From positions 1-8,235 of the IMG/VR virus record IMGVR_UViG_2778261058_000004: 8,235 nt of DNA; one strand, written 5' to 3'. Of this stretch, positions 3,351 through 8,235 are shown one piece after another. The notes beneath the pieces were generated by a model that was not told where the DNA came from, made no database searches, and saw nothing but the letters and a program-made list of their open reading frames with translations. The position numbers and the translations under genes were made by a program. How positions within the stretch are numbered: the stretch's first letter is position 1; every line of letters starts with the position of its first letter. The DNA is from a virus. Taxonomy: Duplodnaviria > Heunggongvirae > Uroviricota > Caudoviricetes.

Positions 3351-4296
3351 ACGCCCACTGGTTATTAACACTCAGCTGGCGATGAAAATAGGTCTGAACG
3401 AAGCCATTGTGTTACAGCAGCTGCATTACTGGTTGAGAGATACCGGTTCCGGCATGGAATGTGATGGTGTTCGCTGGATTTATAACACAACAGAACAATG
3501 GCTGGAACAGTTCCCGTTCTGGTCAGAGTCAACGTTAAAACGCGCATTTGCAAGTCTGAAAACGCTGGGGCTTTTGCGTTGCGAAAAGCTCAACAAATCA
3601 AAGCGTGATATGACTAATTTTTACACGATTAATTACGAGAGCGAGCTTTTAGATGGTGGCAAAGTGAGCGAATCCATCAGGTCAAAATGCGCCGCTCCAT
3701 CAGGTCAAAATGACACGATGGAAGAGGCCAAAATGGCACGCTCCATTGGTTCAAAACGACCCAATGTCATCGGGTCAAAATGGCCTGATGATCTTACAGA
3801 GAATACAACAGAGATTACTACAGAGAATAAAAACACTTCTCGTCCGGAAGCTTCGCAACCGGACATGCAGACGGCTGAACAGGATTTTTTAAACCGACAT
3901 CCTGACGCGGTTGTGTTCAGTGCGAAAAAACGCCAGTGGGGCAGCCAGGAAGATTTGGCGTGTGCGCAGTGGATCTGGGGACGAATCGTGAGTCTTTACG
4001 AGCAGGCTGCCAGCGATGATGGCGAAATCATGCGACCGAAAGAACCAAACTGGACTGCATGGGCCAATGATGTGCGCACAATGCGGATGCTGGATGGCAG
4101 AACTCACAGACAAATTTGCGAAATGTTTGGTCGGGCACAGCGGGATCCATTCTGGGTAAAAAACGTCATGAGCCCGTCAAAGCTTCGCGAAAAATGGGAT
4201 GAGCTGGTTATTCGTCTGGGGCGTTCGCCTGTACAGCGTTGTGTAAATCATATTTCTGAACCGGACACCGAAATTCCGCCGGGATTCAGGGGGTAA
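3331..4296 (+). CDS. Replication initiator (lambda O-like / YdaU-like), about 321 aa from ATG 3331
   Basis: Position between the CII-like and DnaC-like genes, and an iteron array plus AT-rich tract inside the coding sequence. The start is uncertain: the track ORF begins at TTG 3277 and ATG 3289 is also in frame; 3331 was chosen for the MSLLFAERPLV N-terminus. Confidence 0.75.
   Translation: MSLLFAERPLVINTQLAMKIGLNEAIVLQQLHYWLRDTGSGMECDGVRWIYNTTEQWLEQFPFWSESTLKRAFASLKTLGLLRCEKLNKSKRDMTNFYTINYESELLDGGKVSESIRSKCAAPSGQNDTMEEAKMARSIGSKRPNVIGSKWPDDLTENTTEITTENKNTSRPEASQPDMQTAEQDFLNRHPDAVVFSAKKRQWGSQEDLACAQWIWGRIVSLYEQAASDDGEIMRPKEPNWTAWANDVRTMRMLDGRTHRQICEMFGRAQRDPFWVKNVMSPSKLREKWDELVIRLGRSPVQRCVNHISEPDTEIPPGFRG
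3673..3835. repeat. Putative origin of replication: 4-5 iterons (consensus near TCCATCAGGTCAAAATG) at 23-bp periodicity, then an AT-rich tract with ACAGAGA(A/T)TA repeats
   Basis: Copies at 3673-3689 and 3696-3712 are identical; degenerate copies at about 3719-3735, 3742-3758 and 3767-3783. The AT-rich segment at about 3790-3835 has three ACAGAGAATA/ACAGAGATTA repeats. Confidence 0.6.
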
Positions 4297-4302
4297 CGAA
4301 GC

Positions 4303-5049
4303 ATGAAAAATATTGCGACAGGCGGTGTTCTTGAACGCATCCGTAAGCTGGCTCCGCAGCATGTAACCGCGCCATACCGAACAGTGGACGAGTGGCGCGA
4401 GTGGCAACTTGCAGAAGGCCAGAAGCGTTGCGAGGAGATCAACCGCCAGAATCGTCAGTTGTGGGTGGAAAAAATTCTGAATCGCTCCGGCATCCAGCCG
4501 TTGCACCGCAAGTGCTCGTTTGCGAATTACCAGGTGCAGAATGACGGCCAGCGATACGCGTTGAGCCAGGCGAAATCCATCGCCGATGAACTGATGTCCG
4601 GATGCACAAATTTCGCATTCAGCGGAAAACCTGGTACCGGGAAAAACCACTTAGCGGCGGCTATCGGGAATCGCCTGCTGAAAGATGGCCAGACAGTGAT
4701 TGTGGTTACCGTGGCTGATGTTATGAGTGCTCTACACGCCAGCTATGACGACGGGCAATCAGGCGAAAAATTTTTGCGGGAACTGTGCGAAGTGGATCTG
4801 CTGGTTCTTGATGAAATTGGCATTCAGCGCGAGACGAAAAACGAGCAGGTGGTACTGCACCAGATTGTTGATCGCCGGACAGCGTCGATGCGCAGCGTGG
4901 GAATGTTGACAAACTTGAACTATGAGGCCATGAAAACGCTGCTCGGCGAGCGGATTATGGATCGCATGACCATGAACGGCGGGCGATGGGTGAGTTTTAA
5001 CTGGGAGAGCTGGCGTTCAAATGTCAGCTATTTGAGGGTTGTTAAGTAA
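4303..5049 (+). CDS. DnaC-like helicase loader (AAA+ ATPase; YdaV-like), 248 aa
   Basis: Walker A FSGKPGTGKNHLAAAIG and Walker B DLLVLDEIG. Similar to E. coli DnaC along the whole length (SGIQPLHRKCSFANY…, MLTNLNYEAMKTLLGERIMDRM…). Confidence 0.9.
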   Translation: MKNIATGGVLERIRKLAPQHVTAPYRTVDEWREWQLAEGQKRCEEINRQNRQLWVEKILNRSGIQPLHRKCSFANYQVQNDGQRYALSQAKSIADELMSGCTNFAFSGKPGTGKNHLAAAIGNRLLKDGQTVIVVTVADVMSALHASYDDGQSGEKFLRELCEVDLLVLDEIGIQRETKNEQVVLHQIVDRRTASMRSVGMLTNLNYEAMKTLLGERIMDRMTMNGGRWVSFNWESWRSNVSYLRVVK

Positions 5050-5063
5050 TTTCATGAGGGCTT

Positions 5064-5459
5064 ATGGCAAAACCTTTTACACCCGAACAGCGGGAAGAGC
5101 TGAAGGCACGAATTATCGGGTTGGTACGCAAAAATGGACGCATGACGATGTCGCAACTGGAGAGAGCGACGGGAGCTGGCTGGCATTCGGTCCGACGCAG
5201 CCTTGTGGATGTACTGGCTTGTGGTGATTTATACATGTCCGGGGAATACGGTGTTTTTGCATCAGAGCAGGCGTATCGTGAATGGCGTAAGACACCGGAG
5301 AAAACAACTGACCAGACACTGATTCGAAAGTTACCAGACGGAGAAATACGCCGCTACGACAGACACCTGAACATAATCTGTCGCGAGTGCCGGAAGAGTG
5401 AGGTTATGCAGCGAGTGTTGGCGTTTTATCAGGGTAATTTTCAGGAGGTGATGGCGTGA
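5064..5459 (+). CDS. Hypothetical phage protein, 131 aa, possible winged-helix DNA-binding fold
   Basis: ATG 5064 follows GAGGG. Protein-like composition. Its stop TGA at 5457-5459 overlaps GTG 5456 of the next gene. Confidence 0.6.
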   Translation: MAKPFTPEQREELKARIIGLVRKNGRMTMSQLERATGAGWHSVRRSLVDVLACGDLYMSGEYGVFASEQAYREWRKTPEKTTDQTLIRKLPDGEIRRYDRHLNIICRECRKSEVMQRVLAFYQGNFQEVMA

Positions 5460-5755
5460 GGGTGAGAGTTTATATTGCCGGTCCAATGACCGGGTATAAA
5501 AATTTCAACCGTGAGGCGTTCCACAATGCGGAAGAGGAACTGAAACGGGAAGGGCATACAGTCTTAAACCCGGCAGTACTTCCGGACGGGCTGACACAGC
5601 CACACTACATGGATATTTGCATGGCAATGATTCGTTGTGTGGATGCGATTTACATGCTGAAAGGCTGGCAGCGGTCGGCAGGCGCTAAGGCAGAGCTGGC
5701 GCTGGCGGAGAAGCTGGGGCATGCAGTTATTTTCCAGGAGGCAAACAGTGAATAA
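5456..5755 (+). CDS. DUF4406-like protein (nucleoside 2-deoxyribosyltransferase-like fold), 99 aa
   Basis: AGGAGG at 5443-5448 sits 7 nt before GTG 5456. N-terminal VYIAGPMTG…FN…F motif and conserved GW…S.GA.AE segment, as recalled for DUF4406. Confidence 0.65.
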   Translation: MRVRVYIAGPMTGYKNFNREAFHNAEEELKREGHTVLNPAVLPDGLTQPHYMDICMAMIRCVDAIYMLKGWQRSAGAKAELALAEKLGHAVIFQEANSE

Positions 5756-6428
5756 CCAATGGCGACCAGATGTTTGCCCTATAACCGGACGTGCATTTTT
5801 CATGTGGATTGAGCATCCGAAATTGGGCAATGTGCCGACGTATGGCGGCCCATTAGACAGTTACACCATTCCAACAAGGGACAGCGATGGTGAGTTTTCG
5901 TGTGAGCGTTACGATCATGATTTCGGTGGCTGGGTAGAAAGCGAATGTCTTGGGTTATATCTGATTGATGATAAAGAACAATGCAGAGTCTACGAACTGG
6001 AGGAACGCATTGCAGAGCTGGAGACTAATCTTGCTGCACTTGCGGCGGAGAATGCGGGGCTGAATAAATTTATCGCACAGAGTTGCTACGTGTTTGATGG
6101 CGAGCAGGATGAACTATCTGATGCGTATATCTGCGCAATAGACGGAAGGATGCCGCAAACCCCAGCCACCGATGCTTTCCTGGCTGAAGTACGTGCGGAA
6201 GCACGCAACGAGGGGATTAACTATACCGCCAGCCGTCTTGCTGCTGCGTTCAATCACGGATTTATCAATAAGTCTTTACGTGAAGTTTTCGACGTTACGC
6301 GCATGATTCTGTCAGCGAAAGAAGAGTTGGCTAATGAACCGCACCCGATTGATGGTCTGTCCGGTGAATATGCGGAGAAATCCCTTGAAGAATGGGCGGA
6401 ACAGATTCGCAAAGGAGACAACCAGTGA
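5748..6428 (+). CDS. Hypothetical phage protein, about 226 aa, with a central coiled-coil; Ea22-like is a guess only
   Basis: AGGAGG at 5736-5741 sits 6 nt before in-frame GTG 5748, which overlaps the end of the DUF4406 gene. Heptad-like segment ELEERIAELETNLAALAAENAGLNKF. The track start ATG 5721 is an alternative. Confidence 0.55.
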   Translation: MNNQWRPDVCPITGRAFFMWIEHPKLGNVPTYGGPLDSYTIPTRDSDGEFSCERYDHDFGGWVESECLGLYLIDDKEQCRVYELEERIAELETNLAALAAENAGLNKFIAQSCYVFDGEQDELSDAYICAIDGRMPQTPATDAFLAEVRAEARNEGINYTASRLAAAFNHGFINKSLREVFDVTRMILSAKEELANEPHPIDGLSGEYAEKSLEEWAEQIRKGDNQ

Positions 6429-6679
6429 GTGAGTCAAAATGCCAAATTAATGGCAACAAGATAGAACCGTGTACGGCTCTGGCAAAATCCCTTGAGCATG
6501 ATGCTGAATACACGACGCGAAAAGGTCTGCTGATATACAAAATCTGGAATGAGAGTTTAACTCGCGGCCCTGATTTGGTGATGTTGCGTTCCGGTGAATT
6601 TTCTAAATCACCAGTGCGGGTTTCATTTTGTCCGTTCTGTGGTGAAAGTCTGAAAACGTGGGAGAACAGAAATGAATGA
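6425..6679 (+). CDS. Hypothetical small protein, 84 aa, with Cys pairs (C-x11-C … CPFC), possible zinc ribbon
   Basis: GTG 6425 overlaps the upstream stop (GTGA), with AGGAG at 6413-6417. The track start ATG 6392 is in frame but lies inside the previous gene. Confidence 0.5.
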   Translation: MSESKCQINGNKIEPCTALAKSLEHDAEYTTRKGLLIYKIWNESLTRGPDLVMLRSGEFSKSPVRVSFCPFCGESLKTWENRNE

Positions 6680-6983
6680 AATTAAAGAAATACCAGTAGT
6701 ACGTGATGAATATGGCTGCTGGACGCATCCTGAATATGAAAAATTCTGTGATGGTAGAGAACATATTTCAACGGAAGAGTTTAACGCATGGATGGAGGAA
6801 AATAATCTTCAATGGACCATCAGAACTATGGATGAAGATGATTTTAATCTGGACGCAGATGGTCCCGATATTGCCGCTTGGGAACCAGAGCGACCAGAGG
6901 GCGAAGGCTGGTTTGTTGGCTCTATTCATGACACTGAAGATGGTCCTGTTTGTGTATGGCTGAGAAATAAGGCTGAAGCATAA
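6672..6983 (+). CDS. Hypothetical acidic protein, 103 aa
   Basis: ATG 6672 overlaps the previous stop (ATGAATGA), with GGGAG about 8 nt upstream. Strongly acidic (DEDDFNLDADGPDIAAWEPERPEGEGW). Confidence 0.6.
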   Translation: MNEIKEIPVVRDEYGCWTHPEYEKFCDGREHISTEEFNAWMEENNLQWTIRTMDEDDFNLDADGPDIAAWEPERPEGEGWFVGSIHDTEDGPVCVWLRNKAEA

Positions 6984-7112
6984 AGGCGATAAATCACCTG
7001 GCAACAAAACACTGAAAAATTTAAATCAGAAGTGAATTTTATTAAATCCTTAACCGGAGGGATTCCTGCACCCTCAGAACATCAGGAGGCCGCCTGAAAG
7101 GGCGGTAATGAA

Positions 7113-7295
7113 ATGCGAAAGTTCAGAATAATAATTGAAACAGGAATGGCTGGTGGAGATTTTGAGGATGTATTCGAAGTGGATGATGGCGCGACACCAG
7201 ATGAAATACAGGACGAAGCAAAAGAAATTTTCTTTAACTACTGCAATTACTCATATCACGAAATAAAAGATGAGGAGGAAGAACAACATGGCTGA
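7113..7295 (+). CDS. Small highly acidic protein, 60 aa
   Basis: ATG 7113 follows AAAGGG. About 20 Asp/Glu against about 5 Lys/Arg, with a C-terminal DEEEEQ. Overlaps the next gene by 8 nt. Confidence 0.5.
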   Translation: MRKFRIIIETGMAGGDFEDVFEVDDGATPDEIQDEAKEIFFNYCNYSYHEIKDEEEEQHG

Positions 7296-7464
7296 TTTTG
7301 GTTCAACTAAATATAACGCCAGTTTTGAAGAATGGCATGAACTGTTAATGGACTATGCAGAGTTACGCGGTGGAAGTGCTGCTGATGCTGAAGCATGGCG
7401 TGATGATTATGAAGCAGGGAAAACACCGGTCGAAGCATATTGTGATGAGTGGGGCGATGAATGA
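7288..7464 (+). CDS. Small acidic protein, 58 aa from ATG 7288
   Basis: GAGGAGG at 7272-7278 sits 9 nt before ATG 7288. The track start ATG 7270 has no SD. Product MADFGSTKYNASFEEWHELLMDYAELRGGSAADAEAWRDDYEAGKTPVEAYCDEWGDE. Confidence 0.5.
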   Translation: MADFGSTKYNASFEEWHELLMDYAELRGGSAADAEAWRDDYEAGKTPVEAYCDEWGDE

Positions 7465-7516: not shown

Positions 7517-7861
7517 ATGACGACTTTTACCAGAGAGCAGTTAATAGCTCACGCAGAGGAGACGATTGAGGCACAGAGACTGTGCATACCGGGTACAATC
7601 GACCATGACATCATCCGCACATATAAGATGGATATTGCTGTTCTGGAAATTGCACTGGCATCACTGGCAGCGGAGTCAGCCGGTAAATTGCATGAATACA
7701 AACCAGTGGGGTACCAGCGTCTGGTCGACGAGTTAACCATGCTGGTAAAGCAGTTAACCTGGCAACTGAGGAAAGTGAAGCCGGACTGTAAATTGCCGGA
7801 TAAGGCGATGGACTACCTGAAGCGGAACGAACTGATAAGCGCGGAGGATGTTTTGCGATGA
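7517..7861 (+). CDS. Hypothetical phage protein, 114 aa
   Basis: GAAGGGG at 7503-7509 sits 7 nt before ATG 7517. Protein-like, mostly helical-looking composition. Its stop overlaps the start of the next small ORF (ATGA). Confidence 0.6.
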
Positions 7862-7941
7862 CCCGGCCTGAAGCATTCACAACGGTAGGAATTGCGATGG
7901 CGGTGGCGCTGGTGGTGTATTCGATTTGCCGCTGGGGATAA
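7858..7941 (+). CDS. Putative small hydrophobic (single transmembrane) peptide, 27 aa
   Basis: ATG 7858 overlaps the upstream stop (ATGA), with GGAGG at 7843-7847. Product [27 protein letters not shown]. Too short for the 60-aa track. Confidence 0.35.
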
Positions 7942-7976: not shown

Positions 7977-7990
7977 TGCTGCGGGTGCTT

Positions 7991-8031
7991 GAGGCTATCT
8001 GCCTCAGGCATGAACACCAAAAGGCAGATAG
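7991..8031 (+). promoter_or_regulatory. Structured hok leader: CTATCTGCC (7995-8003) pairs with GGCAGATAG (8023-8031), with nested GAGGC/GCCTC and TGCCT-c-AGGCA hairpins
   Basis: Inverted repeats seen directly. hok-family mRNAs are known for extensive 5' secondary structure that controls translation. Confidence 0.4.
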
Positions 8032-8095
8032 AGAAAAGCCCCAGTTAACATTACGCGTCCGGCAAGACGCTTAACATTAATCTGAGGCATTCTGT

Positions 8096-8155
8096 ATGCG
8101 ACACATAGAGATTAGCCTCTTACGGACCGAAAGGTCAAGGAGAAGCAGGCTATGA
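8096..8155 (+). CDS. Leader mini-ORF (19 codons, MRHIEISLLRTERSRRSRL) ending in ATGA overlap with the hok start; mok-like coupling element
   Basis: GAGG at 8084-8087 sits 8 nt before ATG 8096. Its stop TGA at 8153-8155 overlaps the hok ATG at 8152-8154. Confidence 0.3.
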   Translation: MRHIEISLLRTERSRRSRL

Positions 8156-8235
8156 AGCAGCAAAAGGCGATGTTAATCGTCCTGATCGTCATCTGTTTAA
8201 CCGTCATAGTGACGGCACTGGTAACGAGGAAAGAC
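8152..8235 (+). CDS. hok: Hok/Gef-family type I toxin, N-terminal 28 codons only (hokD/relF-like); continues beyond the window
   Basis: AAGGAG at 8137-8142 sits 9 nt before the ATG. Translation MKQQKAMLIVLIVICLTVIVTALVTRKD matches the transmembrane N-terminus of Hok/RelF proteins as recalled. Confidence 0.85.
   Translation, partial: MKQQKAMLIVLIVICLTVIVTALVTRKD

Follow-up and report, generated by a model that had tools for sequence, protein, structure and literature searches.

What do three small and very acidic proteins, encoded in a row behind the replication genes of a prophage, do for the element that carries them? The window studied here, that is the whole stretch of 8,235 nucleotides that was analysed, covers 8.2 kb of a Rac-like lambdoid E. 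coli prophage, namely its immunity, replication and nin part. On its minus strand a RelE/ParE-family toxin of 95 aa and an upstream acidic partner of 63 aa (net charge -7) occupy positions 1556-2034, between the repressor and the left operon, and are followed by a cI-like repressor gene on the same strand. Cro-like and YdaT-like genes lie between this repressor and an O-like gene that ends at 4296, after which comes a DnaC/YdaV-like gene (4303-5049). Directly 3' of these replication genes are a DUF977/Ren-like exclusion protein and then DUF4406 (5064-5755), the latter nucleoside 2-deoxyribosyltransferase-like and a member of PHROG 355. Four genes separate the O-like and DnaC/YdaV-like genes from the acidic ORFs, called A, B and C in the following, which are framed by coding pieces of an Ead/Ea22-like mosaic at 5721-6428 on the left and 7517-7861 on the right. 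The right piece is a 114-aa ORF with matches to the C-terminal ends of several Ea22-type PHROGs, and since C homologues elsewhere abut Ead_Ea22 genes, this suggests that the two pieces serve as recombination anchors. An Rfam search of the acidic-gene region found no RNA family inside it. The window closes with a hok/sok type I toxin-antitoxin locus at 7983-8235 (Rfam sok, 106 bits at 7983-8154), whose Hok-like ORF starts at 8153 and extends past the window end.

A sequence-only reading of this DNA had proposed three consecutive acidic small ORFs after the replication module, with net charges estimated at -17, -15 and -12, and our calculations bear out both the arrangement and the strong acidity. 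ORF A (6672-6983, plus strand) encodes 103 aa with 27 Asp and Glu against 8 Lys and Arg residues, a net charge of -19 and a pI of 4.14. ORF B (7113-7295, plus strand) encodes 60 aa with a net charge of -13 and a pI of 4.11, and ORF C (7288-7464, plus strand) 58 aa with a net charge of -12 and a pI of 4.05; Asp and Glu make up 26-30% of the residues across the three. The start of ORF C was placed at 7288 and not at the ATG at 7270, which would give 64 aa, because the 58-aa start (MADF...) is shared by the homologues and has GAGGAGG upstream. Expressed per residue, net charges of -0.18 (A), -0.22 (B) and -0.21 (C) compare with 0.002 +/- 0.056 for 110 other annotated CDS of five related lambdoid early regions, more than 3 SD below this background, and the only near-equals in the set were another C homologue (-0.207) and YdfB (-0.167). 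Acidity is retained in all family members examined, with net charges from -11 to -22 for A, -9 to -17 for B and -4 to -15 for C, with some acidic positions fixed and others floating. Codon comparison with homologous loci gave dN/dS values of 0.03-0.22 across the three ORFs (A 0.11, B 0.10, C 0.03-0.22). The three ORFs are real genes under purifying selection and their acidity is more than a chance feature.

That the ORFs arose by chance, or are decaying remnants without function, has a negligible probability and is effectively refuted by the conservation data: dN/dS is about 0.1, the homologues number in the hundreds and keep their length over genera, phage types and plasmids, and the fold of ORF A is predicted confidently. 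What can be cited in its favour is the cryptic prophage of E. coli Br_190_kylling (L001), where the A copy (12481-12792 of that locus) has an internal stop and the B copy (12921-13094) ends three codons early and lacks the last 3 residues; these lesions are decay in a cryptic prophage.

The trio consists of two independently mobile modules that lie side by side. The first is formed by ORF A together with an 84-aa non-acidic gene with CxxC-type ends (6425-6679, plus strand; PHROG 4030, E 2e-40; net charge +1; dN/dS 0-0.47), which overlaps it by 8 nt. By annotation a 255-nt CDS adjoins the A homologue in L001, L002, mEp460 and Rac-SA53, and the pair is kept together in the ea region of mEp460 and the nin region of Rac-SA53. 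The second module is formed by ORFs B and C, which also overlap by 8 nt (ATGGCTGA) and which travel as a pair, usually with an Ea22-like gene, in ArgO145, Stx2a phages and many E. coli prophages. Homology breaks at about window position 7041, where the phage matches to the B-C module start. Both modules occupy hypervariable early-operon slots and shift between the ea (PL) and nin (PR) regions. The three-in-a-row arrangement is rare: of 5426 complete E. coli genomes, 118 have 80% or more of the 793 bp as one contiguous stretch and 2601 have some part of it.

Between A and B the scan, which included the linker at 7085-7112, found no plus-strand promoter or terminator, and the three genes are probably transcribed with the early-right operon of the Rac-like prophage. 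The linker (plus strand) reads as GGAGG, a 6-bp stem (7090-7095 with 7100-7105) with a GAAA loop, then TAATGAA and the ATG of B. Alignment placed it upstream of a different gene in mEp460 and upstream of B in ArgO145 and E. coli prophages, and a C>T change of the window in the stem still allows pairing, as G-U. From its sequence the linker looks like a hairpin-bridged ribosome binding site that is also the mosaic boundary of both modules. Some database entries carry an 87-aa form of ORF B because the TGA at 7095-7097 of the window is CGA there and the linker is read through.

The earlier reading had recognised none of the three proteins. All of them fall into catalogued families, namely PHROG 1372 for A, DUF7167/PHROG 1997 for B and PHROG 519 for C, yet these families are uncharacterised: the biochemical job of none is known, and one has a reported immune-related phenotype. 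ORF A belongs to PHROG 1372 with a profile E-value of 4e-54 and matched nothing in Pfam, NCBIfam or PADLOC. Its 193 homologues of about 103-108 aa are spread across Enterobacterales prophages and share the strongly conserved motifs RDxxGxWTHPE and GWFVGSIHDTEDGxVCxWLR (GWFVGSIHDTEDG). Phages of Burkholderia, Pseudomonas, Vibrio and Erwinia carry more distant copies (30-45% identity), some as a domain of a longer protein. In the real longer phage proteins with an A-like domain no second domain could be recognised; longer database entries that we considered as domain fusions of A look like frameshift or gene-call fusions. The AF2 model (pLDDT 86, pTM 0.77) predicts a compact alpha+beta domain with an acidic loop at residues 53-70 of lower confidence, and no PDB fold matched it. 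A putative zinc site (H19/C26/H86/C94) is invariant in the enterobacterial copies, but in Burkholderia phi1026b gp46 and Serratia Parlo gp49 the residues C26, H86 and C94 are not retained; the site was therefore rejected for the family as a whole. Very common Salmonella prophages carry an A homologue directly 3' of recE-recT, a slot that we take to be the lar/ralR position in Rac. Copies were also found in 2041 plasmids, of which 1762 are conjugative. On F-type (IncFII/IncFIB) plasmids the A homologue lies between finO and repA2 (L018 8336-9946 and L022 2351-3961), and on other F-like plasmids between traW and traU.

The immune-related phenotype comes from a homologue of ORF A, orf184 of phage mEp213. 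BLASTP aligned the two proteins over their full length (106 aa) with 45% identity and an E-value of 1e-32. According to the supplement of Silas et al. 2023, orf184 is library gene UDP0184 and mEp213 protein AFM76385.1 (mEp213_045), a locus that tblastn with ORF A also found. The two proteins have the WTHPE and GWFVGSIHDTEDGP motifs, size and acidity in common, ORF A is by sequence a member of the orf184/PHROG 1372 family, and both are early-operon accessory genes of lambdoid phages. They differ in position: orf184 is in the PL operon just 3' of N, in the ral region, whereas ORF A is in the PR/nin region 3' of the replication genes. According to the preprint, orf184 is a phage accessory gene picked from a region that also holds the anti-restriction gene ral, and it triggers cell death via gop-beta-cII, a toxin-antitoxin-like abortive-infection (Abi) system of the P4 hotspot, an effect that was reconstituted in a lab strain (bioRxiv 10.1101/2023.04.06.535777). 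The same text describes the authors' own homology searches with orf184 as yielding "nothing meaningful" (bioRxiv 10.1101/2023.04.06.535777) and, as far as it is available, reports no counter-defence activity of orf184 itself. On this source, the response of gop-beta-cII directly shows that the mEp213 homologue interacts with host immunity; triggering an Abi system is no proof of an anti-defence role. Judged by motif searches, B and C are absent from the 200-gene accessory screen of Silas et al. 2023, and the supplements of Silas 2025 (Nat Commun) had no match to motif strings of these families.

ORF B is a member of Pfam DUF7167 (PF23768), with 49.1 bits against a gathering cut-off of 24.4 and residues 2-53 aligned to profile positions 1-60 of 60, and of PHROG 1997 (E 2e-28). 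Its nearest homologues are E. coli prophage genes. At 35-45% identity, homologues were found in Enterococcus Herelleviridae, phAPEC8-like myoviruses, a Klebsiella Guernseyvirinae phage and Pseudomonas plasmids, all of about 56-57 aa and equally acidic. The AF2 model (pLDDT 73) predicts a beta-beta-alpha-beta arrangement followed by an acidic tail, a generic fold that many unrelated structures match at equal Z. A link of B to exonucleases was considered and dropped: it was seen in two phage groups and the nuclease neighbour is absent in phAPEC8-like phages. No literature was found on DUF7167, DUF5419 or the protein accessions and peptides of the families.

Of the three proteins, ORF C has the most remarkable distribution. 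Residues 1-58 correspond to profile positions 76-137 of 143 in PHROG 519 (E 8.5e-23), and none of 30 family members tested had a Pfam match; the label "DUF5419" on the C homologue of Morganella phage Mecenats66 was not reproduced with Pfam. An exhaustive search returned 61 representative clusters, nearly all of about 30-130 aa, many of the short ones being truncated or fused gene calls. Conserved residues are F13, W16, W37 and Y41, which form an aromatic core, G44 and P47, with a motif AG-TP, and from the alignment we would guess three helices. C homologues are found in lambdoid prophages, often abutting Ead/Ea22-like genes and in either early operon; in Salmonella P2-like prophages, where they overlap the 3' end of the replication gene A and border the variable defence hotspot (L035-L038, 5001-5189); in Vi01-like Ackermannviridae, right 3' of the major capsid gene (Vi01, L014 3001-3195); and near rdgC in a Morganella phage. 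A homologue with 86% identity belongs to the IncI2 plasmid backbone (pMCR-NMG21, L015 8001-8177), and of the 554 plasmid records with a C homologue 516 are conjugative. The IncI2 operon is ordered CaiF/GrlA-type regulator, DUF1187, C, SPFH, NfeD and T4SS, so that C lies in an operon leading into the T4SS genes, about 18 kb from oriT. This setting is not a classic leading-region anti-defence island.

Our preferred reading, held tentatively and with a little less than even confidence, is that A, B and C bind proteins of the host or of rival elements stoichiometrically and act as counter-defence or host-takeover effectors. Each acidic ORF would give a small soluble protein that binds and blocks, or decoys, a protein of the host or of a rival element, and its role would be that of an effector rather than of an enzyme or structural protein. 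A homologue of ORF A is sensed by gop-beta-cII in the way of other phage proteins that tamper with immunity. We favour this reading because the genes are real, their acidity is extreme and conserved within the families, the modules are mobile and the early slots they occupy are hypervariable. For A it is favoured further by the homology to orf184, which is located in the ral region and triggers gop-beta-cII, and by the A homologues directly 3' of recE-recT, and for B and C by their presence in virulent as well as temperate phages and, in the case of C, also in P2-like prophages and plasmids. It also counts in its favour that none of the three matched a catalytic or structural family in Pfam, PHROG, NCBIfam and PADLOC; nor did any of them match a DNA-binding family, or a PADLOC defence model at E <= 1. 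Against it stands that no known anti-defence protein was matched by homology or, for A and B, by fold. The C homologue of Vi01, which lies beside a capsid gene and outside an obvious early cluster, speaks against an effector function, as does the place of C in the IncI2 operon. We infer the stoichiometric mode of inhibition and the targets of all three, and likewise any anti-defence role of B and C. The earlier suggestion of anti-defence or host-interaction functions thus holds in part for A, through orf184; for B and C the case is circumstantial and consists of conserved acidity, hypervariable early slots and a spread over temperate and virulent phages and plasmids. The region is best called a set of phage accessory or counter-defence-associated genes.

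The same earlier reading had pointed to DNA mimics, and indeed T7 Ocr and plasmid ArdA are, like A-C, small, very acidic and early-expressed proteins of mobile elements. As classic mimics of this type the three proteins would imitate B-DNA with their acidic surface and block type I restriction-modification or BREX. Consistent with this are -0.18 to -0.22 charges per residue, held as bulk charge with only some acidic positions fixed, the early-operon position and the occurrence of A homologues in ral/lar slots. However, no Ocr, ArdA or Antirestrict family of Pfam was matched at E <= 1 by A, B or C, nor was any anti-restriction protein in NCBIfam or among PDB sequences, and neither the A nor the B model has an Ocr/ArdA-like fold; the compact alpha+beta domain predicted for A differs from the elongated, helical, DNA-shaped dimer of Ocr and ArdA. 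We regard mimicry of this kind as improbable. A likeness of A to lambda Ral and Rac Lar (RalR) is positional only: in mEp213 (after N) and in Salmonella prophages (after recT) A-family genes fill slots equivalent to those of Ral and Lar, and A has no sequence similarity to these proteins (no Pfam match). Ral is not acidic, unlike the A-family proteins. Less improbable than mimicry, though still unlikely, is that the three serve the phage itself as accessory factors for replication, recombination or the lysis-lysogeny decision, for example as acidic proteins that chaperone or modulate basic DNA-binding proteins (RecT, Ea22-like or replication proteins), in the manner of the small ORFs of the exo-xis region. 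This is a real alternative because adjacency to such genes is recurrent, though inconsistent. All three ORFs lie 3' of the replication module in the window, A homologues directly 3' of recE-recT, and C homologues directly after P2 gene A and directly before or after Ead/Ea22-like genes; a B homologue overlaps an "exonuclease" gene in Klebsiella phage VLCpiS11a and Enterococcus phage MDA2. Yet the neighbours vary: phAPEC8-like phages have no nuclease beside B, the upstream partner of A differs by context, and C is also found in plasmids and beside a capsid gene. The interaction of orf184 with a defence system also argues against a purely internal role.

Two narrower explanations follow from the recombination and nuclease genes near some homologues. 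Gam of lambda, gp5.9 of T7 and Abc2 of P22 are, like A-C, small acidic phage proteins often located beside recombination genes, and the trio could be their functional analogues, inhibiting RecBCD for a RecET-type phage. RecE/RecT lambdoids of the Gifsy-1 class are without a recognised anti-RecBCD gene (PMC12315714), and in some genomes A adjoins recT and B adjoins exonucleases. Against this, A-C have no homology to these inhibitors (no Pfam similarity to Gam or Abc2), and the RecET lambdoid class is often Chi-rich and tends to use RecBCD and Chi (Zheng et al. 2025, PMC12315714). The window contains two plus-strand Chi sites (GCTGGTGG) in the same orientation, at 7149-7156, inside ORF B (codons A-G-G), and at 7908-7915, where 0.24 are expected; two sites were reached in 5 of 200 shuffles. 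This fits with Chi-rich RecET-type lambdoids (PMC12315714). Since the window is Chi-enriched, the RecET class uses Chi and mEp213 carries Abc2 besides orf184, RecBCD inhibition is highly unlikely. Hardly more probable is the possibility that ORF A protects against a partner nuclease in the manner of an immunity protein or antitoxin, so that the phage copies would be orphan antidotes to DUF2726- or PLD-type nucleases. In pKp30E-NDM-1 and pECTOK-001_2 the last 4 nt of a DUF2726 (PD-(D/E)xK-like) gene are shared with the A homologue, DUF2726 stands beside the match in two further rows of the 2041 plasmid hits, and a DrmC-like PLD-family nuclease gene comes next after the A homologue in both F-type plasmids. 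We rate this explanation low because the DUF2726 or PLD partner is not conserved elsewhere: other plasmids, like the window, have an unrelated gene upstream of A, and other F-like plasmids have A between traW and traU. Moreover, most such plasmids are probably of one backbone lineage, and the DUF2726 gene matched no PADLOC defence model. Other small phage inhibitors were also compared. T7 Gp2 is an inhibitor of RNA polymerase and T4 Dmd an antitoxin against RnlA/LsoA, and neither had a Pfam match among A, B and C. Profile comparison of ORF B with Gp2 by hhalign gave a probability of 0.18%, so that their likeness is at most an analogy, and in phages that rely on the polymerase of their host an RNA polymerase inhibitor would be unexpected.

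If A, B and C do antagonise host factors, as in the effector reading that we prefer, they would add targets and mechanisms to the counter-defence of phages and plasmids. It is possible, though rather doubtful, that at least one of them is a new class of inhibitor common to mobile elements. ORF A could truly antagonise immunity, with gop-beta-cII as a guard against this activity, and the action of A in the cell could explain what this system senses. For now the region is ordinary "dark matter" of phages apart from one helpful link to the literature, and ORF A offers a concrete handle on it: gop-beta-cII, an Abi system that is already defined, responds to a homologue. ORF C could neutralise a conserved enterobacterial factor that faces all incoming DNA elements. 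The IncI2 plasmids, which have C in their backbone, spread mcr-1, so a part played by C in plasmid establishment would be of practical interest. Finally, in phage Rac-SA53 (L009 5673-7308), where the A homologue is rac22, genes annotated "CII phage-like protein" and "beta" lie about 1 kb 3' of rac22, past an IS1, and match the component names of gop-beta-cII by annotation only.
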